Source of the DNA: Allosphingosinicella sp.
Lineage (GTDB): Bacteria > Pseudomonadota > Alphaproteobacteria > Sphingomonadales > Sphingomonadaceae
Length of the DNA: 64,000 nucleotides
Assembly: GCA_036388065.1 (NCBI GenBank)
Contig: DASVSP010000061.1
Coordinates: 7,703 to 71,702, forward strand
Reading direction: 5' to 3'
This document shows positions 25,191-56,721 of the stretch, in pieces. The number at the start of each line of letters is the position of its first letter. Position 1 is the stretch's first letter. A program made the translations under genes and the position numbers. Under the pieces are notes generated by a model, which ran no database searches, was not told the DNA's origin, and saw only the letters and a program-made list of their open reading frames with translations.

Positions 25191-27101
25191 TCAATTGTGT
25201 CCGGGCGGGCTCGCAGCGAAGCGGGACAGGAGCGCGTCGATCTGTCTTTGCTGGCGGGCGATCGCGTCCGTCACCTCGGCCTCGCGCGCCTGGCGCGCCA
25301 GGACCACCCGGACGGCGCGCGCGATCGGGGCGGCAAGCTCGTCGAGCGCGTCGAGCTCCGCCGTGCTGAGCCTCGACCGGTCGGGGTGTGGGCCGAGCAG
25401 GATCCAGCCTAGGCACGTGCCGTCGTCGAGGCTGAGCGGTCGCCGGAGCGGAAAGAAGGAATCGCCCGTCTCGACGCCCGAGGAGCAGGCGGGATCCAGC
25501 GCAGTCCTGTGCAGCCAGGCCTCCACCTCCGCCGCCCCGGTCCCCCGGCTCCCTGCGACCGTGCCGTCGAGAACCAGCGCCAGCCGGGCCGAGCGAACGC
25601 CCGAAGAAATCCGCTTCAGTATCTCTTCGACGAGTTCCGGGAGGGTGGCGAAGTGGCGGAGGTCGCGAAGGCAGTCGGGAAGGTCGCGGCGCATCTCGAC
25701 CAGCTTGCGCTGGAAGCGCCGCTCGGCCCAGCCCTGGACCCGCTCGTAGATCGGATTGATCATCACCGTCGACAAGGCGGCCCCGACGATCGGAGCGATC
25801 GAGCCCGCGTCGCGCCCGAAGAAGCGAAGGATCACCTCCTTAACGCCCTCCATCGTCGCGGCGAAGATCCCCGCCAGGATGACCGCGATGAGGGCGAAGG
25901 AGGCGGAGCGGCTGATCGCCACCTCGGCGTCGTAGAGCCGGTAGCGGAGCAGCGCGACAAGCAGTCCGGCCTGGAGCAGCAGGAAGGCCAGCCCGAATGC
26001 GAAGCCGGCCGCGACCTCGAGGAAAAGCTGCTGGGCGAGGCCCGAGGCCCCCGCCTTCAGGATGTCGGCGGTGATCGAGACCCCGACGAAGAAGACGTAG
26101 CCCGAAAAGCCGAATACCGCCCATTTGAGCTGCTGGCGTTCGTCGCCCGAAGCGCTTCTCAGCCGCCATAGGAAGAGGAGGACCGAGGCGGCCATCGCCG
26201 CGATCAGCACCGCGCGGTAGAAATCGCCCTCGAGGAACAGCAGCAGCGGCAAGGCGGCGAGAAGCCCGATCGTGATCCTCGGCGACAGCCGGCCGTGCGG
26301 GAAGAGCAATATTCCGCCGATCAGGAGGATGTTGGCGAGGTCGTAGAGCGCCTGATGGACTCCTTCGGGCAGCTCGAGGACGAGCGCGAGGAAGGTCGCC
26401 GAGGGCTGCTCGGTCGCCATGGTGAGCAGGATCGCCAGCGAGACGACCGAGCTGACCACATCCTCGCGCTTGCGGCGGAACAGCAGCCAGGCCGAGATCA
26501 GCAGGAAGGGGTAGGTTGCGAGGTGGATGAGGTCGATGAAGCTCAAAAGCCCCGGCGGCAGTCCGATCGATCGGGCGGCGCGCTCGATATGGGCCTCGCC
26601 GGTCCGAATCGCGAGCTCGCGTGTCCGCCCGTCGCTCGAGCGCAGGGTGAGCGAGACCTCCCGGTCCTCCGAGCCGCTCATAAGGTCGTTGAACAGCAAT
26701 CGGTCGGTCTCGTTGCCCGCCCCCGCCGCACCGGCGCGCGAGCCCGGCATGGCCACCACGTCGGACACCGGGATGGTGTCGATCGCGACGATGTCGTCGC
26801 CGGCGCGGATCCCGGCCGAGGCCGCGGCCGGCCCGACCGGGAATCGGATCCGAGTCAGATCCTGTTCGGCCAGAGCCACCCCGGCGCGGCTCCCGGAGAC
26901 GAGGCCGCTGTTTCGCCCCGCCTCGTCGAAACGCTGCCAGGTCCCGGCGATTGGCCCGATCATTGCCAGCGCGAAGGCCGCGAACCAGACGATCCTGAAG
27001 AGGAAGAAGCCGCGCGGCCCGAAATCGGGGATCCGGCTCGGAAGCCTCAGCGGCAAGCGCCGTGCGGGCGGCCCGCTCTCGGACGCGATTTCAACTGCCA
27101 T
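25191..27101 (-). CDS. Multi-TM membrane protein with PDZ-like periplasmic and GAF-like C-terminal regions
   Basis: PAASAGIRAGDDIVAID (PDZ), multiple TM, LLRYRLYD, LGWILLGP. Confidence 0.75.
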   Translation of the reverse strand: MAVEIASESGPPARRLPLRLPSRIPDFGPRGFFLFRIVWFAAFALAMIGPIAGTWQRFDEAGRNSGLVSGSRAGVALAEQDLTRIRFPVGPAAASAGIRAGDDIVAIDTIPVSDVVAMPGSRAGAAGAGNETDRLLFNDLMSGSEDREVSLTLRSSDGRTRELAIRTGEAHIERAARSIGLPPGLLSFIDLIHLATYPFLLISAWLLFRRKREDVVSSVVSLAILLTMATEQPSATFLALVLELPEGVHQALYDLANILLIGGILLFPHGRLSPRITIGLLAALPLLLFLEGDFYRAVLIAAMAASVLLFLWRLRSASGDERQQLKWAVFGFSGYVFFVGVSITADILKAGASGLAQQLFLEVAAGFAFGLAFLLLQAGLLVALLRYRLYDAEVAISRSASFALIAVILAGIFAATMEGVKEVILRFFGRDAGSIAPIVGAALSTVMINPIYERVQGWAERRFQRKLVEMRRDLPDCLRDLRHFATLPELVEEILKRISSGVRSARLALVLDGTVAGSRGTGAAEVEAWLHRTALDPACSSGVETGDSFFPLRRPLSLDDGTCLGWILLGPHPDRSRLSTAELDALDELAAPIARAVRVVLARQAREAEVTDAIARQQRQIDALLSRFAASPPGHN

Positions 27102-27463
27102 CCCCGCAAGCGCCCCAGCTGCAACGATCCTTCGGCATCGGTGGATAGCATAAGCGGGGGCGGCGACCATCGGGATAATCGCGGGTGCCTCAGCGAGGTC
27201 CGTGACGGGCAGTCGCGAGGGCGCCTTTGTCTTCCCTCCTTCAAGGGAGTGCAGCTACTCCCGGCGGCGCCGCCCTCTCCCTTCCCTGGAAGGGACGGGC
27301 GGCGGGTTGTTAGCCGAGCGCAGCGAGCAGTTGTGCTTCACGGCCGACCGGGCCTGGATTTTTGGAAAGACGTACCCGAAGGTACAAGGGCCGCACCACG
27401 CGATCCGGTCAAGACGGACCTTGAACGCGCTCTGGTGAAGGGAGCAGGTCAGGGCCTCAGGGT

Positions 27464-29322: not shown

Positions 29323-30426
29323 TCAGCCGAGGCCGCGGGCAAGGAGTGGGCCTATTCGGTTGGCGACCCGAAGAGGCAGCCTGCGCCAGGCCGCCGTCTG
29401 AAGCCGGTAACGGGCGCTGTTGGGGTTCAGGTCGCGGTGGGCCCCCTTCGTCGCATAGGCGAGAGGGCGCGGCGCGAACCCCCAGTTCTTCTTGAACGCG
29501 AAGGCTCCGGTCCCGACCTTGGAGCGGCCGAAATCGAAGCCGGTGCAGCCGCGCTCGGCCGAGCGGCGCATCAGCGAGTAATAAAGGAGGTCGTTGGCCC
29601 GCAGGCGCCGGGCCTGGCTGGTTCCTCCGCCCCAATAGGGATGGACGATGCCCTTGAAATAGAGGCTTAGCACCGAGGCGACCGGACTGTCGCCGGCCCG
29701 GACCGTGAGGATTTCGCAATCCTCGCCCCATTCTCGGGCCATGGCCTCGAACAGGGTCCGCGGGAAGACCGGGGTGCCGAGGTTGCGCACGCTTTCGGAA
29801 TAGACTCGGTAATGGTCGTCGAGCGCCCGCCGGTCCCGGCCCTCGCTCGATTCGAGCCCGAGGGAGAGCGAGCGCCGCACCTCGGCGCGCTGCTTGCGCG
29901 GAATGGACAAAAGGATCGCCTCCTCGCTGCCGGGCAGCTCGCGCAGGAAGCCGGCATAGATTCCTTCCTCCCGGTTCCAGCATTCCGGAAGCCGGCCGCC
30001 CCGGAGGGTGACCGAGGGGCACCCCTCGCGCCCGGCAAGCGACCAGGCGGCGGCGGCGAGCGCCTCGACCGCCATCCCGGTGCCGGCGAGGATTCCGCCG
30101 CCGACTCCGAAGCCGGTCGAGACCAGAGCCGAGCCGAAGACGGGCGAGCGGATCCGGGTCAGCGGAAGCAGCCCGGTAAGCCGCCCGGCGGAGTCCTCGG
30201 CGACGAGATAGCGGCCCGCCTGGCCCGTCCCGAGTTCGACCCCCCTCGTCCAGGCGGGCCGATGGAAGAGCTCGGAGTCGGGATGGTCGGCGACGAAGGA
30301 ATCGATCCGCCGGCACTCGCTCGGGTCCCGCAGGTCCGCGAGCCGGACGCTGAACCCGCCGAAATGGGCGACGATGTTGAGCAGCTCGCAACAGAGCTGC
30401 AGGTCGAGCAGGATTGCAGCCAGCAT
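29323..30426 (-). CDS. FemAB-family XrtA/PEP-CTERM system-associated protein; start uncertain
   Basis: FHRPAW, SVRNLGTPVFP, YWGGG, FDFGRSK..TG...FKKNWG. Confidence 0.87.
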   Translation of the reverse strand: MLAAILLDLQLCCELLNIVAHFGGFSVRLADLRDPSECRRIDSFVADHPDSELFHRPAWTRGVELGTGQAGRYLVAEDSAGRLTGLLPLTRIRSPVFGSALVSTGFGVGGGILAGTGMAVEALAAAAWSLAGREGCPSVTLRGGRLPECWNREEGIYAGFLRELPGSEEAILLSIPRKQRAEVRRSLSLGLESSEGRDRRALDDHYRVYSESVRNLGTPVFPRTLFEAMAREWGEDCEILTVRAGDSPVASVLSLYFKGIVHPYWGGGTSQARRLRANDLLYYSLMRRSAERGCTGFDFGRSKVGTGAFAFKKNWGFAPRPLAYATKGAHRDLNPNSARYRLQTAAWRRLPLRVANRIGPLLARGLG

Positions 30427-31007: not shown

Positions 31008-32834
31008 TCAGGCCGAGTCGCCGGCCGCGAGCGCCTGGTCCCGAAGCTCTCCACGCTCCGCAGCGCGCTTCTGGCGGCGCCACATCGCGGCGTAGAGGCC
31101 GCCGCGGGCAAGCAGCTCATGATGGCGGCCCCGCTCCGCGACTTCGCCGCCGGCGAGCACGAGTATCTCGTCCGAATCGACGATCGTCGAGAGGCGGTGG
31201 GCGATGACGAGCACCGTTCGTTCGGCGGAGATGGAGTGGAGGCTCTCCTGGATCTCCCGCTCGGTCTGGCTGTCGAGGGCGCTGGTCGCCTCGTCGAAGA
31301 CGAGGATCGCGGGATCCTTCAGGACGACCCGGGCGATCGCCACCCGCTGCTTCTCGCCTCCCGACAGCTTCAGCCCGCGCTCGCCCACTCTCGTCTCGTA
31401 ACCGTCGGGAAGCGTGAGGATGAAGTCGTGGATGCTGGCGGCCCGAGCCGCGGCTTCGATCTCCCGGGCCGTCGCGCCCGGGCGGGCGTAGCCGATATTG
31501 TAGCCGATCGTGTCGTTGAACAGGACCGTGTCCTGCGGCACCATTCCGATCGCCCGGCGAAGGCTCTTCTGCGACACCTCGCGCAGATCCTGGCCGTCGA
31601 TGCGTATGGCGCCGCCCCGGACGTCGTAAAAGCGGAACAGGAGGCGCGCGAGCGTGGACTTGCCGCCGCCGCTATGGCCGACGATCGCCACCGTCTTCCC
31701 GGCCGGAACGTCGAACGACACATCTTTCAGGATGGGCCGGCGCGGATCGTAGGCGAAAGTGACGGCGTCGAACGAGACTTCGCCGCCGGTGACCACCAGG
31801 TCGGGTGAGCCCGGCGCATCCGTCACGTCCGGCTGCACCTCGAGCAGCTGGACCAACGACTCGACGTCGGTGATCGATTGCCTCGTTCCGCTGTAGCTCG
31901 ACGCGAGCATTCCGAGCGGCACGTAGAGCTGGAGCAGATAGGCGTTGACCAGAACGAAATCGCCGACCGTCATCGTGCCGGCGGCGACCTCGCGGCCGGC
32001 CATGACCATGACCGCGATCATCCCGGCGGCGATGATCGCCGCCTGGCCGGCGGCGGACAGAGCCTCGACCCTTTCGGCGCGGACCGCGGCCTCCTCGTAG
32101 GCGCGCTTGGCCTGCTCGTAACGTTGCGCTTCGTTCGCCTCGGCGCCGAAATATTTCACCGTCTCATAGTTGAGAATGCTGTCGACGGCGATCGAGATCG
32201 CCGCCACGTCGCACGTGTTGCGGTAGCGCCTTGCGCGGATCTGCCGGCCTGTTGCGGCGATGGTCAGGCCGGCATAGCAAAGCACGGTGGCAAGCACCGC
32301 GACCGCGAAGTCCGCGCTGTAGAAGCCCCACAGGATGGCCGAGACCAGCACCAGCTCCAGAAACGTCGGAACGACGTTGAACAGCATGAGCTCGAGCAGA
32401 AACTCGATTCCGGAGACTCCGCGGTCCACGACCCGGGCGAGGCCGCCGGTCTGCCGATCGAGGTGGACTCGGAGCGACAGCGAATGGATGTGGTTGAACA
32501 TCTGGAGCGCGGTCGACCGGATCGCGCGCTGGGCCACCCTGATGAAGACCAGGCTTCGAACCGCCTCGACCAGCTGCCCGCCGACCTGGGCCACCCCGTA
32601 AGCGAGGATCAGGGCGATCGGGATCGCGGCGAGCGCCGGACCGGACAGTGAGTCGATGATCTGCTTGTAGAGAAAGGGCGCCGCGACCGCGACCAGCTTG
32701 GCCGCGAAGATCAGCGCGACCGAGACGACGACTCGCACCTTCATGCCCGCCTCGCCGCTCGGCCACATCAGCGCCAGCAACTGGCTCAGCGCCCACCGGG
32801 CGGGCGATTGGGGGATGGATTTCGGGTCGTTCAT
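31008..32834 (-). CDS. ABC transporter ATP-binding/permease (ATM1-like half transporter, no C39 peptidase domain)
   Basis: TM domain plus GHSGGGKST, LSGGEKQR, DEATSALD; divergent from the precursor array. Confidence 0.93.
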   Translation of the reverse strand: MNDPKSIPQSPARWALSQLLALMWPSGEAGMKVRVVVSVALIFAAKLVAVAAPFLYKQIIDSLSGPALAAIPIALILAYGVAQVGGQLVEAVRSLVFIRVAQRAIRSTALQMFNHIHSLSLRVHLDRQTGGLARVVDRGVSGIEFLLELMLFNVVPTFLELVLVSAILWGFYSADFAVAVLATVLCYAGLTIAATGRQIRARRYRNTCDVAAISIAVDSILNYETVKYFGAEANEAQRYEQAKRAYEEAAVRAERVEALSAAGQAAIIAAGMIAVMVMAGREVAAGTMTVGDFVLVNAYLLQLYVPLGMLASSYSGTRQSITDVESLVQLLEVQPDVTDAPGSPDLVVTGGEVSFDAVTFAYDPRRPILKDVSFDVPAGKTVAIVGHSGGGKSTLARLLFRFYDVRGGAIRIDGQDLREVSQKSLRRAIGMVPQDTVLFNDTIGYNIGYARPGATAREIEAAARAASIHDFILTLPDGYETRVGERGLKLSGGEKQRVAIARVVLKDPAILVFDEATSALDSQTEREIQESLHSISAERTVLVIAHRLSTIVDSDEILVLAGGEVAERGRHHELLARGGLYAAMWRRQKRAAERGELRDQALAAGDSA

Positions 32835-33004
32835 CCGTTTCGGACCAAAGGCTCCGGCGCCGGCGAAGCGCAATTGGAAGCCCGGATCATGTAATTCGCC
32901 TCGGGCACGGGTCGGCGCACCGCAGTCAGGGGAAAGAATACGCCGATAGGGTTGAAGACACTGAGCACCGGTGTCAGCCTTGGTTTCGGTGAAGCTCCGA
33001 GTCG

Positions 33005-33037
33005 CCGGATGTAATTATATCCGGAAGCGGATATAAT
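33005..33037. promoter_or_regulatory. Palindromic operator and TATAAT -10 box upstream of the precursor array
   Basis: CCGGATGTAATTATATCCGG (20-bp, 1 mismatch) then CGGATATAAT. Confidence 0.6.
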
Positions 33038-33059
33038 ACGCAACTTAGGAGAAGTAGAG

Positions 33060-33221
33060 ATGGAAAGAAAGACCTTTGCGTTTAAGCTGGCGGACAAGGC
33101 CGCGAACAGGACGTCGAAATGGAAGGCGCGCGACGGAGTCTCCATTGCGGGATGCAGCGAGCGTTCCGAAGGGGATTATCGCGATTACGTCAGAGGGGGT
33201 GATAACGGCTACCATTGCTAA
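33060..33221 (+). CDS. RiPP precursor peptide A1 (53 aa)
   Basis: MERKTFAFKLADKAANRTSKWKARDGVSIAG-CSERSEGDYRDYVRGGDNGYHC*; AGGAG RBS. Confidence 0.93.
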   Translation: MERKTFAFKLADKAANRTSKWKARDGVSIAGCSERSEGDYRDYVRGGDNGYHC

Positions 33222-33326
33222 CAGGTAGCTTGAGAGCTCCGACGGAAGTCGGACTCCCCCTCCGGGCGAGTCGAAGGGCGGATTTGATCCAATGCGGATG
33301 AAACTGCCACAGCAGGAGAAGTAGAG

Positions 33327-33491
33327 ATGGAAAAGAAGACCTTTGCGTTCAAGCTGGCCGACAGGGCCGCGAACGGCGCCTCCAAATGGAGGACTCGCGA
33401 CGGCGTTGCTGTCGCCGGATGCACCGACGTCACCGGAGACGGAGATTTGCGCTACAAGCTCAGGCTGGGTGACAACGGAGAGTATTGCTAG
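33327..33491 (+). CDS. RiPP precursor peptide A2 (54 aa)
   Basis: MEKKTFAFKLADRAANGASKWRTRDGVAVAG-CTDVTGDGDLRYKLRLGDNGEYC*; AGGAG RBS. Confidence 0.93.
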   Translation: MEKKTFAFKLADRAANGASKWRTRDGVAVAGCTDVTGDGDLRYKLRLGDNGEYC

Positions 33492-33596
33492 CAGCAGAAC
33501 GTCCTGGAGCCCTCGACTAAAAATCGGGGGCTCCTCGGGTGTCCTTGTCACCCGATCACGTACGAACCGCATAATTTATTGAGCCCGGAGGATAAG

Positions 33597-33758
33597 ATGC
33601 AAAAGAAGACCTTTGCTTTCAAATTGGCCGACAAAAACGCGAACGCCGTTTCCAAATGGAGTGCGCGCGACGGAGTTCCGCTCGCGGGCTGCACTGAAGT
33701 CAGGCTTGGCAATTATCGCGAGTCGAGCAGGTTCGGAGACAACGGCGTTTATTGCTAG
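33597..33758 (+). CDS. RiPP precursor peptide A3 (53 aa)
   Basis: MQKKTFAFKLADKNANAVSKWSARDGVPLAG-CTEVRLGNYRESSRFGDNGVYC*; GGAGG RBS. Confidence 0.93.
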   Translation: MQKKTFAFKLADKNANAVSKWSARDGVPLAGCTEVRLGNYRESSRFGDNGVYC

Positions 33759-33852
33759 ACTCTACTGACCCCGGAGCGACGCTGGCACTGTAGCTGTCCA
33801 ATGAGCCGCAGCAGCTAATGTCGCTCCGATTTACAAACCGTGGAGAATTAAA

Positions 33853-34014
33853 ATGGAAAAGAAGACTTTTGCATTCAAGCTGTCCGACAAGGCCGCCAGG
33901 GGCGCTTCCAAATGGACGGCCCGCGACGGAATCTCGCTCGCCGGCTGCAGCAACGTCGGCGACTACAATTATCGCGCTAGCCGCTTAAGAGGCGACGACG
34001 GGATATATTGCTAG
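33853..34014 (+). CDS. RiPP precursor peptide A4 (53 aa)
   Basis: MEKKTFAFKLSDKAARGASKWTARDGISLAG-CSNVGDYNYRASRLRGDDGIYC*; GGAG RBS. Confidence 0.93.
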   Translation: MEKKTFAFKLSDKAARGASKWTARDGISLAGCSNVGDYNYRASRLRGDDGIYC

Positions 34015-34135
34015 GATCGCTACGTCGCGGAGTCTCCGGCTCAGGCCGGGGGCTCCTTGGCCCGGTCGACCCCGAGACGGTGCGGTCGGTTACCGAAATC
34101 TGACCGAACTCTGAAAAGAATGGCCAGCAAAGGAG

Positions 34136-34285
34136 ATGGAAATGAGGACTTTTGCCTTCAAGCTCGCCGGCAAGACAGCCGGAACCGATTCCAAATGGAT
34201 GGCGCGCGACGGCGTTTCTCTCGCCGCCTGCACTTATGTCGGCGACGGTCAGTATCGTTGGAGAGACAACGGCTACTATTGCTGA
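34136..34285 (+). CDS. RiPP precursor peptide A5 (49 aa; 47 aa if started at ATG 34142, which has better RBS spacing)
   Basis: MEMRTFAFKLAGKTAGTDSKWMARDGVSLAA-CTYVGDGQYRWRDNGYYC*. Confidence 0.92.
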   Translation: MEMRTFAFKLAGKTAGTDSKWMARDGVSLAACTYVGDGQYRWRDNGYYC

Positions 34286-34298
34286 CGGCGGAGCGCAG

Positions 34299-35300
34299 GT
34301 GTCAAAGCGCGTTCTGATCGTCACCAACAGCGACGATCTTCACGCCGACCTGGTGGCGGCCCGGATCGAGTCCGAGGGCGGGGCCGCCTTTCGGCTCGAT
34401 CTCGACGAATATCCCGCCGGCTTCGAAATCGGCTTCGGCTTTTCCGGCGGCCGCTGGGACGGCTCGCTCGTCCGGACGGCGGGCGGGGAGTCGCTCGCGT
34501 TGCAGGACGTCGGAGCGGTCTGGATGCGCAAGCGCGCGTCCTTCCGCTACCGTTCCGACGGCATGGGCGCGCACGAGAAGGCGCATGCCGACGCCGAAAC
34601 CGACCACATGCTGCTGGGCATTCTTCGGTCGCTCGATTGCCGGTGGATGAGCCATCCCGACGCCGTGCGCGGATCGCACTGGAAGCCCGAGCAGCTTCGG
34701 CGCGCGGCGCGAATGGGCTTTGCCGTTCCGGAATCGCTGATGACCAATATCCGTGCGGAAGTGGACCGGTTTTCCGCCACGGCCGAACATGGCATCGTCT
34801 TCAAGCTGCTCTCCTCGATGCTCGACGCGGCCGACTCGGTCGGTCCGCAGGAAGAGCTGGCGCGGGGGGTCCCGACCACCCTGATCGGCCCGGAGCATGA
34901 GGATATGCTCGATTCGGTGGCGGAGCTGCCCTGCTTCTTCCAGCATTATGTTCCAAAGCGCCACGAGCTTCGGGTGACGGTCATCGGCGGATCCGTGTAC
35001 GCCGCCCGGATCCATTCGCAGGACGATCCTCGGACGACGACGGACTGGCGCGACATGTCGGCGGAGATCCGCTACGAGGCCGAGACCCTTCCACCCGAAG
35101 TGGCGAGGCGCTGCCTCGACTTCGTCCACAGCTACGGCCTGACCTTCGGCGCCATCGACCTCGTCGTGACTCCGTCCGGCGACCACGTTTTCCTGGAAAA
35201 CAACCCCGTCGGCCAGTTCCTCTTCGTCGAGCAGCTGGTTCCCGAGCTGGACATGACCGGGGCCGTCGCCCGGTGGCTCGTCGACTCCGCCCGTTCGTGA
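34299..35300 (+). CDS. MvdC/MvdD-family ATP-grasp ligase (graspetide synthetase)
   Basis: GTG start after GGAG, 13 nt after A5; VLIVTNSDDLHAD, KPEQL..A...G..VP...MTN, FQHYVPKRHELRVTVIG, DWR, FGAIDL, FLENNPVGQF. Confidence 0.9.
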   Translation: MSKRVLIVTNSDDLHADLVAARIESEGGAAFRLDLDEYPAGFEIGFGFSGGRWDGSLVRTAGGESLALQDVGAVWMRKRASFRYRSDGMGAHEKAHADAETDHMLLGILRSLDCRWMSHPDAVRGSHWKPEQLRRAARMGFAVPESLMTNIRAEVDRFSATAEHGIVFKLLSSMLDAADSVGPQEELARGVPTTLIGPEHEDMLDSVAELPCFFQHYVPKRHELRVTVIGGSVYAARIHSQDDPRTTTDWRDMSAEIRYEAETLPPEVARRCLDFVHSYGLTFGAIDLVVTPSGDHVFLENNPVGQFLFVEQLVPELDMTGAVARWLVDSARS

Positions 35301-35311
35301 CTCGAGGCCGA

Positions 35312-36184
35312 ATGAACCTTCACCACCACATCGTCGATATCGAACGCCGGCGGCGCAGCCGGCTTCTCGTTTTCGCGGCTTCGAACCTGGAGACGGATCT
35401 GCTTCCCGCACTGTACGACACGTTGCGGGAAATCGGACGCACCGAGCGTCTCGACGTCCTGCTCCACTGCCACGGCGGCGAAGTGACCGCGGCGAGGGCC
35501 ATCGCCCTGCTTCTCCACCAGTTCACCGACCATCTCGCCTTCATCGTCCCGGAGCGGTGCACCTCCTCGGGAACGATCCTCGCGCTCTCGGGCCACGAGA
35601 TCGTCGCCGGGCCGGCCGCTTTGTTCTCGCCGGTCGATCCCCTGCTGCAGGGTCCCACGTCCGGGGCGGACGATCCGCTCGGGTCGATTTCGGCACAGGA
35701 CGTGCGGCTGTTCGGAGTCATGAGCCGGGATTGGTTCGGTCTTCCCGAGGGCGAAGCCGGGCCCAAAGCTCTCTCGGTTCTGTGCGACAACGTCTTCCCG
35801 ACGACCCTGACCTCTTTCTACCGCTCCACGCTCGAGGTCGAGGCCGTCTGCCTCGAATTGCTTTCGCTGCACATGGGCGCAGGCTCGGCGGCGGAGAAAA
35901 AGACGATCGTCGACAGCCTCCTCTACGGCCATCATTCGCACGGCTTCGCGCTGATGCGCGGCGACCTGGCCGCCCTCGGGCTGCCGCTCCGGGGCGACCC
36001 GGAAACCGAAGACATTGCGTGGGAAGTGGCGCGGACGGTCCGCCAGTCCGTCGGGGGCAGCTCGCGGCGGGCAGCGGAGGACGACTGGACCGACGTTCTG
36101 CTCGCGACCCGCTCGGCTTCCCGTCGCCGGCGGCGAAGCCGGGAGGGCATCGGTCCGGCCTGGGAAAGCGGCGAGATCGAATGA
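35312..36184 (+). CDS. SDH-family (ClpP/S49-fold) serine proteinase; alternative start GTG 35297 overlapping the ligase stop
   Basis: DVLLHCHGG, VPERCTSSGTILAL, SPVDP, SHGFAL.R.DL..LGL. Confidence 0.82.
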   Translation: MNLHHHIVDIERRRRSRLLVFAASNLETDLLPALYDTLREIGRTERLDVLLHCHGGEVTAARAIALLLHQFTDHLAFIVPERCTSSGTILALSGHEIVAGPAALFSPVDPLLQGPTSGADDPLGSISAQDVRLFGVMSRDWFGLPEGEAGPKALSVLCDNVFPTTLTSFYRSTLEVEAVCLELLSLHMGAGSAAEKKTIVDSLLYGHHSHGFALMRGDLAALGLPLRGDPETEDIAWEVARTVRQSVGGSSRRAAEDDWTDVLLATRSASRRRRRSREGIGPAWESGEIE

Positions 36185-36687
36185 CGAGCCTGGCCGCGTT
36201 TTCGGGCGAGGCGTGCCGGCTCTACGTGATGGTCGCCCTTGCCGCCGCCGTTGCCGGCAAGTCGATGGCGATCGACGATTTCAGGGACACGCTTCTCGAC
36301 CTGCCGGGACTGTCGCCGCGCAATTCCGGTGCCGCGGCGCTTGCGGTGATCGGCAGCGAGGCCGTGATCCTGGGCTGGGCGGCGGTCGCGCCGCGGACCG
36401 GAATGGTCGCGGCCCTGGCGGCCTTCGCGCTGATGTCGAGCGCGATCCTTGCCGCCCTTCTCACGGGCCGGCCGCTGATGTGCAATTGCTTCGGGGGACG
36501 GGCACGGCCGGTCTCCTGGCTGGACCTGGTCCGCAACCTGGCGCTGATCGGCGCCTGCGCGTCCTTCCTTCTGGCGCCGCCCTTGGGCGCGCCCGGCCTT
36601 GCAGGATGGCTGCTGCTCCTCGGCCTGGCGTTCATCGCCTTCCTGGTTTCGGCCAACCTCGACGAGATCGCGGCGCCGGCCCGCTGA
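36181..36687 (+). CDS. MauE/DoxX-family redox membrane protein
   Basis: ATGA overlap with protease stop; 4-5 TM; CNCFG motif then VSWLDLVRN. Confidence 0.87.
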   Translation: MTSLAAFSGEACRLYVMVALAAAVAGKSMAIDDFRDTLLDLPGLSPRNSGAAALAVIGSEAVILGWAAVAPRTGMVAALAAFALMSSAILAALLTGRPLMCNCFGGRARPVSWLDLVRNLALIGACASFLLAPPLGAPGLAGWLLLLGLAFIAFLVSANLDEIAAPAR

Positions 36688-37229
36688 TGGACTCCGATCT
36701 CATCGTCCTCGTGCTCGTCGTGGTGACGTTCGCAGCCGCGTTCAACCTGTGGCTGACCTTTCGCCTCTCCGCTCGAATCCGGGAGATGACGGCGCCCGCC
36801 TTCACCGTCACCCTCGGTGATCCGGTACCTTCGTTCGAGGGCACGGCGTCGGCCGGGAGCCGGGCGATCCGGTCCTCGGATCTCGCCGGGCAGCCGGCGG
36901 TGCTGGTGTTCCTCTCGGCCGGGTGCAGCACCTGCGCGGGGCACATCCCGGAGCTGGCCGCGATCCTGGACGGAGCGGGGCGGCTCGGTGTGAGCCTCTG
37001 GATCGTTCCGGCCGACGACGTCCACGACATCGCCCGCCTCGTCGGCGGAACGCCGCTGGCGGAGCGCGTGCTGGTCCTCGAACCGGCTCACCGCCTTCGC
37101 CTCAATCCGATGAGATCGGCGCCCTTCTACCTGTTCATCGACGAGAATTCGGTCGCCCGGGCGAGCAACAATCTCGGCGACGAGGATTGGACAACGTTCG
37201 TCGAGCAGATGTTGGAAGGGGCTGGATAG
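36687..37229 (+). CDS. MauD-like membrane-anchored thioredoxin (CxxC)
   Basis: TGATG overlap; N-terminal TM; GDPVPSF, LVFLSAGCSTC, APFYLFID. Confidence 0.85.
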   Translation: MDSDLIVLVLVVVTFAAAFNLWLTFRLSARIREMTAPAFTVTLGDPVPSFEGTASAGSRAIRSSDLAGQPAVLVFLSAGCSTCAGHIPELAAILDGAGRLGVSLWIVPADDVHDIARLVGGTPLAERVLVLEPAHRLRLNPMRSAPFYLFIDENSVARASNNLGDEDWTTFVEQMLEGAG

Positions 37230-54920: not shown

Positions 54921-55490
54921 GTGAGTGAGGAAGATCACAAAAAACGCAAGCTGCCCACAATTTTCGCCGTCTTCGGATGGCTCATGGGCAGCTTAAGCTT
55001 GCTCAACTTGGCTAAAGACTTAACGCCCTTAGAACTCCATGGAGCTCTCAAGCAATGGGTTATAGCGTATGGAGTTTTTGTCCACTCCCTTTCGGATTTA
55101 CTATTTGGATGGCTGAGTTGGCGATGGATCGCCCTCGACAGAGTTGAGGCCCACTTAACCGTTATCATGGTTCTGCTGACATCCGCTGTCGTAAAAGCCC
55201 TCTTCGTGGAAAACCGGTATCGCGGTGGGAGTAAAATCCTTGCAGCTGGGGTTTCGGGAGGCATTGTACTATTCTTATTGCCATTTCTGGCTATTGTCCT
55301 ATTGCTCCCCTCGTACTTTGGAACAATCTTGGGTGCTCTTTATCTCGTTATTCAAGGCTACGTTTGGAATTTTGTTTCCGTAAAAGAGGATTTAGCTCCA
55401 CCAGAAAATGTTCGGCAGCAGATTATAACAGTTATTGCGACGTTTGCGCTTGTAGTTATTGTAAATTATCTTTTTCTCCGTCCACATTAA
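54921..55490 (+). CDS. Low-GC multi-TM hypothetical protein
   Basis: AT-rich codons, about 5 hydrophobic helices; overlaps the tyrS 3' end. Confidence 0.7.
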
Positions 55491-56721
55491 CTGATGAGGG
55501 AGGTCCAGGGGTCAGAAGCCCGTGCTTCTTCTTGCCCGCCGAGATTCGCACGTCCCCGCTCACGGCGACGCTGACGTCCTCGCCCGCCGGCTCGCCATCG
55601 ATCCGGGCGCCGCCCTGGGCGATGAGCCGTCGGGCCTCGTTCTTCGAAGCGCAAAGGCCAAGGCCGATCAGAGCATCGACCAGCGTAATCTCGCCCTCGA
55701 CCTTGAGCGTCGGCAAAGCCTCGCCCGATGCGCCTTCCTCGAAGGTCAGCCTCGCCGTGTCCGCCGACTCCCGAGCCGCGTCTTCACCGTGAAGCAGCGC
55801 CGTCGCGGCGTCCGCCAGAATCTTCTTCGCCTCGTTGATCTCGGCTCCGCCAAGCGCCTCGAGCCGCTCGATCTCGCCCAGCGGCATGTCGGTGAAGCGG
55901 CGAAGGAACTTGCCGACGTCGGCGTCCTGCGCGTTCCTCCAGAACTGCCAGTAATCATAGGGCCCGAGCTGGTCGGCGTTGAGCCAGATCGCGCCCTTCT
56001 CCGTCTTGCCCATCTTGCCGCCGTCGGCGGTGGTGATGAGCGGTGTGGTGAGGCCGAAGACCTGGGTCGAATCGACCCGTCGGCAAAGCTCGATTCCGTT
56101 GACGATATTGCCCCATTGGTCCGATCCGCCGAGCTGGAGGCGGCAATCGGCGCGGCGCGACAGTTCGAGGAAGTCGTAGCCCTGGAGGATCATGTAGTTG
56201 AACTCGAGGAACGACAGCGACTGCTCGCGGTCCATCCTCAGCTTGACGCTGTCGAAGCTGAGCATCCGGTTGACGGAGAAATGCTGGCCGATCTCCCGGA
56301 GGAAAGGGATATATTCGAGCTTGTCGAGCCATTCGGCATTGTCGAGCAGGACCGCGTCGGTGGGGCCGTCGCCGAAGATCAGGAAGCGCTCGAAGACCCG
56401 CTTGATCGAGGCGATGTTGGCCTCGATCGTCTCGCCGTCGAGAAGCTTGCGCGCCTCGTCCTTGAAGCTCGGGTCGCCGATCTTCGAAGTGCCGCCGCCC
56501 ATCAGGACTATCGGCTTGTGCCCCGACTGCTGGAGCCGGCGAAGCATCATGATCTGGATGAGGCTTCCGACGTGGAGCGAAGGCGCGGTCGCGTCGAAGC
56601 CGATATAGCCGGGGATGACCTGTCGCTGTGCCAGGGCGTCGAGGCCCTCGGCATCGGTGAGCTGGTGGATGAAGCCGCGTTCTTCGAGGGCACGCAGGAG
56701 CTGGGATTTGTAGTCGGACAT
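55456..56721 (-). CDS. tyrS: Tyrosine--tRNA ligase
   Basis: [31 protein letters not shown]4 domain. Confidence 0.97.

Follow-up and report, generated by a model that had tools for sequence, protein, structure and literature searches.

What would be made by an operon in which five small homologous open reading frames are followed by an ATP-grasp ligase, a protease and two redox genes? This question is raised by positions 31008 to 37229 of a 64,000-nucleotide stretch of DNA from Allosphingosinicella sp. (GenBank assembly GCA_036388065.1, contig DASVSP010000061.1; the whole stretch is called the window here). A sequence-only reading of the window had proposed a self-contained pathway to peptides constrained by ester and disulfide bonds, built around a graspetide-type ligase, and had implied that the pathway was new. 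The gene set and the pattern of the precursor cores do fit such a pathway; the implied novelty found no support. The cluster is genuine, yet it had been catalogued before, and we regard it as an uncharacterised variant within a known class of graspetides. On balance, it is probable that this is a conserved graspetide operon producing and exporting a small library of bicyclic peptides by the whole chain of steps proposed below. Its parts are the following.

31008..32834, minus strand: ABC exporter half-transporter, Atm1-type; 608 amino acids, without C39 peptidase domain.
33014..33037: perfect 10-bp inverted repeat, just before the ribosome-binding site of A1.
33060..33221, plus strand: precursor A1; 53 amino acids, predicted 22-residue core C-S...D-x4-C.
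33327..33491, plus strand: precursor A2; 54 amino acids, predicted 23-residue core.
33597..33758, plus strand: precursor A3; 53 amino acids counted from ATG, predicted 22-residue core.
33853..34014, plus strand: precursor A4; 53 amino acids, predicted 22-residue core.
34136..34285, plus strand: precursor A5; 49 amino acids, predicted 18-residue core.
34299..35300, plus strand: graspetide synthetase, MvdD-type ATP-grasp; 333 amino acids, GTG start, PF21068.
35312..36184, plus strand: SDH-family ClpP-fold serine protease; 290 amino acids, PF01972, alternative GTG start at 35297.
36181..36687, plus strand: MauE-family five-helix membrane protein; 168 amino acids, PF07291.
36687..37229, plus strand: MauD-like membrane-anchored thioredoxin-fold protein; 180 amino acids, PF00578, motif CSTC.

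The layout given by the sequence-only reading, an exporter divergent from five homologous short open reading frames that are followed by ATP-grasp, SDH, MauE-like and CxxC thioredoxin genes, was recovered position by position. The tight coupling it described could also be read in the sequence: a 13-nt gap separates A5 from the GTG of the ligase, the GTGA junction at 35297-35300 is an in-frame alternative SDH start, and ATGA (36181-36184) and TGATG (36685-36689) join SDH to MauE and MauE to the thioredoxin. A purine-rich stretch resembling a ribosome-binding site lies ahead of each of A1-A5. The precursors A2-A5 are 58-64% identical to A1, and identity among the five is 69% in the leader versus 38% in the loop of the core.

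We propose that these parts act as follows. The ligase would bind the FAFKL motif of the leader and link the Asp at core position -6 to the hydroxyl at position 2. The anchored thioredoxin would oxidise Cys1 and the terminal Cys and pass electrons to the CxC of MauE and on to quinone, as tested MauE homologs suggest; with both active sites predicted to be cytoplasmic, the disulfide would form before export. The soluble SDH protease would cut after a conserved Ala-Gly and free Cys1, and the peptidase-free ABC exporter would secrete the product, a putative 8-residue clamp with a variable loop in which an aromatic-Arg pair is usual.

The ligase is a graspetide synthetase and neither a RimK nor a glutathione synthetase, as profile scores, structure matches and invariant catalytic residues agree. 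PF21068 matched above its cut-off. The best NCBIfam matches, TIGR04187, MvdD (202.7 bits) and MvdC (164.2 bits), all lay below theirs, and RimK (TIGR00768) scored 21.7 bits against a cut-off of 143.4. MvdD is ester forming and MvdC amide forming. The nearest solved structures were the ATP-grasp ligase 5IG9, which we take to be microviridin MdnC, and CdnC (7MGV). K129, K169, K220, E223, R225, D249-x-R251, D287, E300 and N302 are invariant in 41/41 sequences. Ligases that depend on a partner are also known. Microviridins, group 1 of the graspetides, have a PFFARFL leader, a TxKxPSD core and two ligases. Both motifs are absent from A1-A5, and no second ligase was found in the cluster or, by tblastn, in the genome; on these features the cluster does not fit the microviridins.

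Which graspetide group does it belong to? The window ligase shares a 90%-identity cluster with HEX8468264.1, listed as group 9 in the accessible part of Carter et al. (2026, PMC13097080), and our assignment is by that shared cluster, the original ligase network not having been rebuilt. It is also 79% identical to MEA3011145.1. The leader motif 'FAFK' has at least 149 matches in supplementary file 2 of the same paper, and among the matches listed 30/30 are group 9. Precursors A1-A5 likewise fit the cluster-281 consensus FAFKL...W..RDG...AGC[T/S]...R...D.G..C of Makarova et al. (2022, PMC8939145), a cluster whose 48 entries are marked 'new' in the accessible part of that paper and for which a single ester is noted as possible. 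Group 9 is mixed in its make-up: this cluster of the ligase network includes unrelated precursors, actinobacterial and from Chloroflexota, as well. According to the accessible text of Carter et al., over half of group 9 carries a serine proteinase, for which self-resistance is proposed. On every feature that could be tested in sequence, the window cluster belongs to group 9 / cluster 281.

These matches bear on the novelty that had been implied, which must be lowered: the family, its link to a serine protease and a single possible ester were already in print. Two statements of the sequence-only reading fared better. It did not recognise the gene combination as a characterised graspetide pathway, and none with this gene set turned up in our literature searches. 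It had also named a match to an already characterised group as grounds for calling the cluster real but not new; ligase cluster and precursor consensus do match a catalogued family, but our searches returned no characterisation of that family. The accessible parts of the group-9 and cluster-281 papers (PMC13097080, PMC8939145) hold no MauE, thioredoxin, disulfide, leader-peptidase role or experimental tests for the family, and the words 'thioredoxin', 'disulfide' and 'ClpP' are absent from the main text of Makarova et al. (PMC8939145). Our literature search returned no paper combining graspetides with MauE, although the co-occurrence table of Carter et al. and other surveys may list the partner genes. 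It returned no experimental study of this family, as judged mostly from titles and abstract openings; by the same measure, none of the papers listed on graspetides with disulfides concerned this family. Nothing came up on an SDH/ClpP-type leader peptidase for RiPPs (peptides made on the ribosome and modified after translation), nor on cytoplasmic MauE/MauD with twin-arginine export. What is new is the core grammar, the fixed gene order, a candidate leader peptidase and a predicted inverted oxidase; the family and its protease link were known.

The fixed gene order emerged from 55 loci gathered by precursor similarity alone, of which one duplicate was dropped; a ligase match was present in 46, and the loci include close kin, so that they are not independent. 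Where the contig left room downstream of the ligase, SDH followed in 36/36, MauE in 35/35 and the thioredoxin in 33/33, always in the same order, and the expected co-occurrence of these neighbors with the ligase was thereby borne out. Since the same order recurs in dozens of loci described as unrelated, it is not a matter of chance. The ABC exporter lay within the locus in 19/21 cases; L028 and L007 have no exporter nearby (L, G and C numbers are our handles for loci, genomes and contigs). Eight loci have precursors and no ligase, five of these being short or ending near the precursors, and the number of precursors per locus runs from one to six.

The distribution of the cluster is patchy. A precursor profile hit 10/150 genomes of the host genus (one of the 10 weakly, with a stop) and 0/400 sampled genomes of the phylum; the full set was present in 8/9 regions fetched from host-genus genomes. 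Full clusters were seen in hosts such as Allosphingosinicella, Parvularcula, Psychrosphaera and Lysobacteraceae, and the accessible part of the table of Carter et al. (PMC13097080) has precursor rows also from Massilia, Janthinobacterium, Phenylobacterium and a myxobacterium. A plasmid search returned only one distant Deinococcus ligase. In L010 and L028 the cluster directly adjoins putative histidine biosynthesis genes and a histidine ammonia-lyase-like gene, as read from translations.

The case for the product is carried by the precursor cores. From 191 precursor sequences, 13 of which could not be parsed, we obtained 157 distinct cores of 18-29 residues, 156 of them with a terminal or subterminal Cys. 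Ala-Gly precedes Cys1 in 153/157. Position 2 is Thr in 103, Ser in 52 and Cys in 1 of the 156; Asp stands at -6 in 156/156, and exactly two Cys are present in 150/156. The loop carries an aromatic-Arg pair in 135 of these cores. A second, more distant set of 139 new representatives, 133 of them ending in Cys, obeys the same rules: position 2 is Thr/Ser in 128/133 (three of the five others were wrongly parsed from an earlier Cys), and -6 is Asp/Glu in 131/133 (D 128, E 3). That Thr and Ser replace each other, as do Asp and Glu, points to donor and acceptor roles for these positions. Because the grammar of the core is C-[T/S]...D-x4-C, we read it as a variable loop held by one ester and one disulfide. 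A product with one Thr/Ser-to-Asp ester and a terminal disulfide is highly probable, and its shape would be an 8-residue clamp, formed by Cys1, Thr/Ser2 and the final six residues, that bears the loop. For such products (-H2O and -2H) the predicted monoisotopic masses are 2516.98 (A1), 2542.12 (A2), 2504.10 (A3), 2476.07 (A4) and 2197.87 (A5). The sequence-only reading had left the choice between macrolactones and lactams; the ester fits the core pattern, and a lactam is unlikely because Lys is present in only 36/156 cores. One observation speaks against a single, fixed ester: 142/156 cores have an extra Ser/Thr and 154/156 an extra Asp/Glu, so that additional or other esters are possible. The leader has, besides FAFKL, a second conserved motif, W-x-x-R-D-G...A-G, beside the predicted cut site.

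Some precursors stand apart from the operon. Orphans far from any ligase occur at L004 / L141 (contig C1 of G423), L009 and L044. In G423, three orphan precursors lie on another contig than the complete cluster (L142) and may be substrates in trans; no SDH of the cluster's family was found in G551 (L009). One entry, P0225, is an 827-amino-acid protein annotated as a PAS/GGDEF diguanylate cyclase that clustered with a 55-amino-acid precursor, possibly through chance read-through or a clustering artefact.

On which side of the membrane would the disulfide form? The active site of the cluster MauE is that of a MauE oxidase: Lys27, Glu60 and C101-x-C103-FG are invariant in 36/36 sequences. C80-x-x-C83 and Pro146 of the thioredoxin are invariant as well. 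According to the accessible text of a preprint (bioRxiv 10.64898/2026.03.05.709764), two MauE proteins replace DsbB and need their CxC for this, and a conserved Phe-Gly, Lys and Glu lie near the predicted quinone site. In two loci MauE and the thioredoxin are fused into a single chain (L008:9111-10052 and L016:6552-7544), the last MauE helix replacing the thioredoxin anchor. A model of the fusion has five long helices and one short helix, then the thioredoxin domain; because of where this model places that domain, CxC and CxxC are on the same side of the membrane. We then counted charges. Lys plus Arg amount to 7.6 on the CxC side of MauE versus 0.9 on the opposite side (36/36), and to 3.1 in the C-flank of the thioredoxin anchor versus 0.125 (32/32), a predicted N-out/C-in arrangement. 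As a control, 25 of 30 MauE loci of another phylum could be parsed: 20 had the opposite bias and 5 the same bias as the cluster. Four of these five, when inspected, adjoin MauD or a twin-arginine small subunit, and the fifth is borderline. Both cysteine motifs of the cluster pair are hence predicted to face the cytoplasm, and the MauE family appears to exist in two orientations. An outward-facing MauE would moreover be redundant in other hosts, because a DsbB match was found in 5/5 other cluster-bearing genomes (the G423 copy is broken by a stop).

Perhaps the same bicyclic product is made and MauE and the thioredoxin face the periplasm, where they would oxidise the peptide after export or serve mainly as an aid to export or quality control? 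Several points weigh against the cytoplasmic placement and toward this alternative. The topology comes from charge counting with membrane boundaries that we set ourselves, across related sequences that are not independent, and some VKOR enzymes break the positive-inside rule, according to the accessible part of a preprint. In both tested MauE proteins the CxC lies in the periplasm, and both complement dsbB (bioRxiv 10.64898/2026.03.05.709764, as far as accessible; we compared them without their sequences). In class I lasso peptides, SviE/F and MslE/F are dispensable for the disulfide and matter more for yield or export, SviF in particular being needed for export rather than for the disulfide (PMC9266682, accessible part). 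Finally, DsbB was not found in the cluster's own genome (89% complete), which weakens the redundancy argument there. Nevertheless, we consider the periplasmic arrangement unlikely: the charge bias is opposite to that of generalist MauE in all of the MauE and thioredoxin sequences counted, the fused proteins place the thioredoxin on the CxC side, and the five other hosts have their DsbB matches. The cytoplasmic pair is kept as a prediction from sequence.

Further observations concern the two proteins and their relatives. A weak MauD profile match was seen in 6/32 thioredoxins, far below MauD-level similarity. In the window the neighbors of the pair are SDH upstream and a GFA-family gene downstream, not the mau-cluster partners MauA, MauB and MauG. 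A fold search with the fusion model returned mostly thioredoxin-like chains and one match to the membrane part, NACHO/TMEM35A (Z 13.0, root-mean-square deviation 2.4, 117 aligned), which is no guide to function and was set aside; DsbB and VKOR chains were absent from the matches listed. Classical mau-type MauE/MauD pairs (L061, L062, L151, L154, L160, L161) have the same cytoplasm-facing charge bias as the cluster, and in L151 a twin-arginine small subunit lies beside MauE/MauD. These sequences hint that mau small subunits may receive their disulfides before export. A longer MauE type with a putative glutaredoxin-like N-terminal extension and the motif CACVGG (L064-L074) has its CxC on the positive side in 10/10 parsed sequences, and the cluster's own genome has a putative copy of this type too (G000:C24:21371-21748).

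We next consider how the leader would be removed. Ser85, Asp109 and His210 of the SDH protein were present in 120/120 homologs and aligned with the catalytic motifs of the family; the triad is assigned by order and conservation in sequence on a ClpP-like fold. PF01972 matched above its cut-off and NF047768 below. The model (predicted local distance difference test score 90) matched ClpP, SppA and stomatin-specific protease in fold at 10-17% identity. Cys83 (window 35558-35560), two residues before the catalytic Ser, is invariant in 120/120 homologs; that it might be unique to the cluster SDH was weakened by an unrelated SDH, L116, that also has Cys, four other canonical SDH proteins having Ala. 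Neither a hydrophobic signal or anchor nor a twin-arginine consensus was found in 37 SDH proteins and 63 precursors, and therefore both should stay in the cytoplasm. A role as leader peptidase is the simplest and likely one, because the triad is intact, because the exporters are too short for a peptidase domain (29 extracted exporters, all 537-598 amino acids), because no other peptidase is among the mapped genes, and because the second leader motif adjoins the Ala-Gly/Cys junction. A complex prediction for SDH with a precursor scored 0.01, which we counted neither for nor against.

Carter et al. read the group-9 protease differently, as a self-resistance factor (PMC13097080, accessible text), and this weighs against leader cleavage. 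On that account, the peptide would target a ClpP-like protease, SDH being a copy of it for self-resistance or a decoy, and a host protease would remove the leader. Microviridins and plesiocin are indeed serine protease inhibitors. However, the genome has no second, housekeeping SDH gene to duplicate, and SDH is only distantly like ClpP structurally (12-17% identity); moreover, a conserved leader motif lies beside the predicted cut site, no other peptidase is among the mapped genes, and the compared exporters are too short for a C39 domain. We judge the decoy quite improbable and keep SDH as the likely leader peptidase.

Removal of the leader makes Cys1 N-terminal, which raises a different possibility for the ring. 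The invariant Cys1 thiol, and not the hydroxyl, might be the donor for the ligase, and leader removal would let the resulting thioester shift to an N-terminal macrolactam on Asp. Graspetide ligases do form thioesters on engineered substrates, with an S-to-N shift. Class I lasso peptides have an N-terminal Cys ring, which such a macrolactam would resemble. The same kind of redox pair serves those peptides (PMC9266682, accessible part). This chemistry leaves the position-2 hydroxyl unexplained, kept as it is in 155/156 and 128/133 cores with free exchange of Thr and Ser, and we regard it as very improbable. The hydroxyl of residue 2 is the donor that we favor.

The exporter of the window has ABC_membrane and ABC_tran domains only, is closest to Atm1 and has a paralog, about 52% identical, in the host's other Atm1-like gene (contig C116). 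It has no N-terminal C39 domain and so is not a peptidase-containing transporter of the double-glycine type. The exporter that had been described is present and divergent, but its type is corrected to Atm1-type without peptidase domain. Across loci the exporters fall into at least three separate lineages in a quick tree, used only to show several lineages. A requirement for an Atm1-type exporter, through a preference for disulfides or metals, was rejected, as most loci use other exporters. That the cysteines stay reduced and bind a soft metal, the product being a chelator exported by an Atm1-type heavy-metal exporter, would suit the closest relatives of the window exporter, but is highly doubtful given the unrelated exporters in most loci, a MauE with the intact CxC that marks an oxidase where tested, and a variable loop in up to six copies that fits binding diversity better than chelation.

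The DNA around the precursors has features of its own. The precursor array has a GC content of 54-60% versus 67% for the window, the enzyme genes being host-like; a second, similar dip, to 56%, lies at window 55001-56000. The inverted repeat at 33014-33037 recurs in six related loci, where 3/11 pairs have changed on both sides, and is a candidate operator or RNA hairpin for translation control. A consensus scan of 32800-34400 found no sigma-70 promoter or terminator. By tblastn, the own genome has no second copy of the precursors, ligase, SDH, cluster MauE or cluster thioredoxin. The flanking FemAB-like, GFA, GST and ORF 30526 genes had no tblastn match in loci L001-L010, and we therefore place them outside the cluster. 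One of them, the FemAB-like GNAT gene (window 29323-30426, minus strand), has a 52%-identical paralog on contig C125. Farther off, window 25191-27170 (minus strand) encodes a 659-amino-acid membrane protein whose N-terminal part is putatively PDZ-type and which also has several helices and a soluble tail.

What would such a product do, and why would it matter? By analogy only, it would most likely inhibit or bind outside proteins, for example proteases. Tentatively, and with a little less than even confidence, we suggest that this family is the first type of graspetide to have a native disulfide, which a dedicated, inverted MauE-thioredoxin relay would make in the cytoplasm, that its SDH/ClpP-fold protease is a new kind of leader peptidase, and that classical MauE/MauD is likewise inverted, so that MauE would have a dual orientation and methylamine dehydrogenase small subunits would be oxidised before twin-arginine export. 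If this is true, a one-enzyme macrocyclase and a disulfide clamp that tolerate cores of 18-29 residues and diverse loops would be a scaffold for bicyclic peptide libraries. The SDH-family protease would gain its first physiological substrate, and graspetides, whose leader removal is still described as enigmatic in the accessible part of a 2026 source, a second type of dedicated leader peptidase. MauE and the thioredoxin would be a natural two-gene module for cytoplasmic disulfides in Gram-negative bacteria, useful for protein production, and would help to settle where MauE/MauD act. Should no more than the ester and the disulfide be borne out, the cluster would be a solid but incremental new graspetide subtype.

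How does this pathway compare with known systems? From group 9 / cluster 281, as far as those sources are accessible, it does not differ in membership: ligase cluster, precursor pattern, serine protease link and single possible ester are the same. With the microviridin and chryseoviridin ligases (MvdD/MdnC and CdnC; 5IG9 and 7MGV), the cluster ligase has in common the ATP-grasp subfamily, the catalytic residues and the D-x-R motif. However, the cluster has one ligase, one predicted ester instead of three links, a predicted disulfide and no peptidase-containing transporter, and its leader reads FAFKL instead of PFFARFL. Class I lasso clusters, according to the accessible part of PMC9266682, likewise join a DoxX-type membrane protein and a CxxC thioredoxin (SviE/SviF, MslE/MslF) to a disulfide-bearing peptide with an N-terminal Cys; they differ in ring chemistry, in host phylum and in that the lasso genes are dispensable for the disulfide. 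The tested MauE oxidases (bioRxiv 10.64898/2026.03.05.709764, accessible part) have CxC-F-G, Lys, Glu and thioredoxin fusions in common with the cluster MauE, but they have four helices and are periplasmic, whereas the cluster MauE has five helices and the opposite charge bias. MauE/MauD of mau clusters have the same bias as the cluster pair, which presumably acts on a short peptide instead of an enzyme subunit. By these likenesses, the pathway would work as if the disulfide module of class I lasso peptides had been added to a graspetide pathway.

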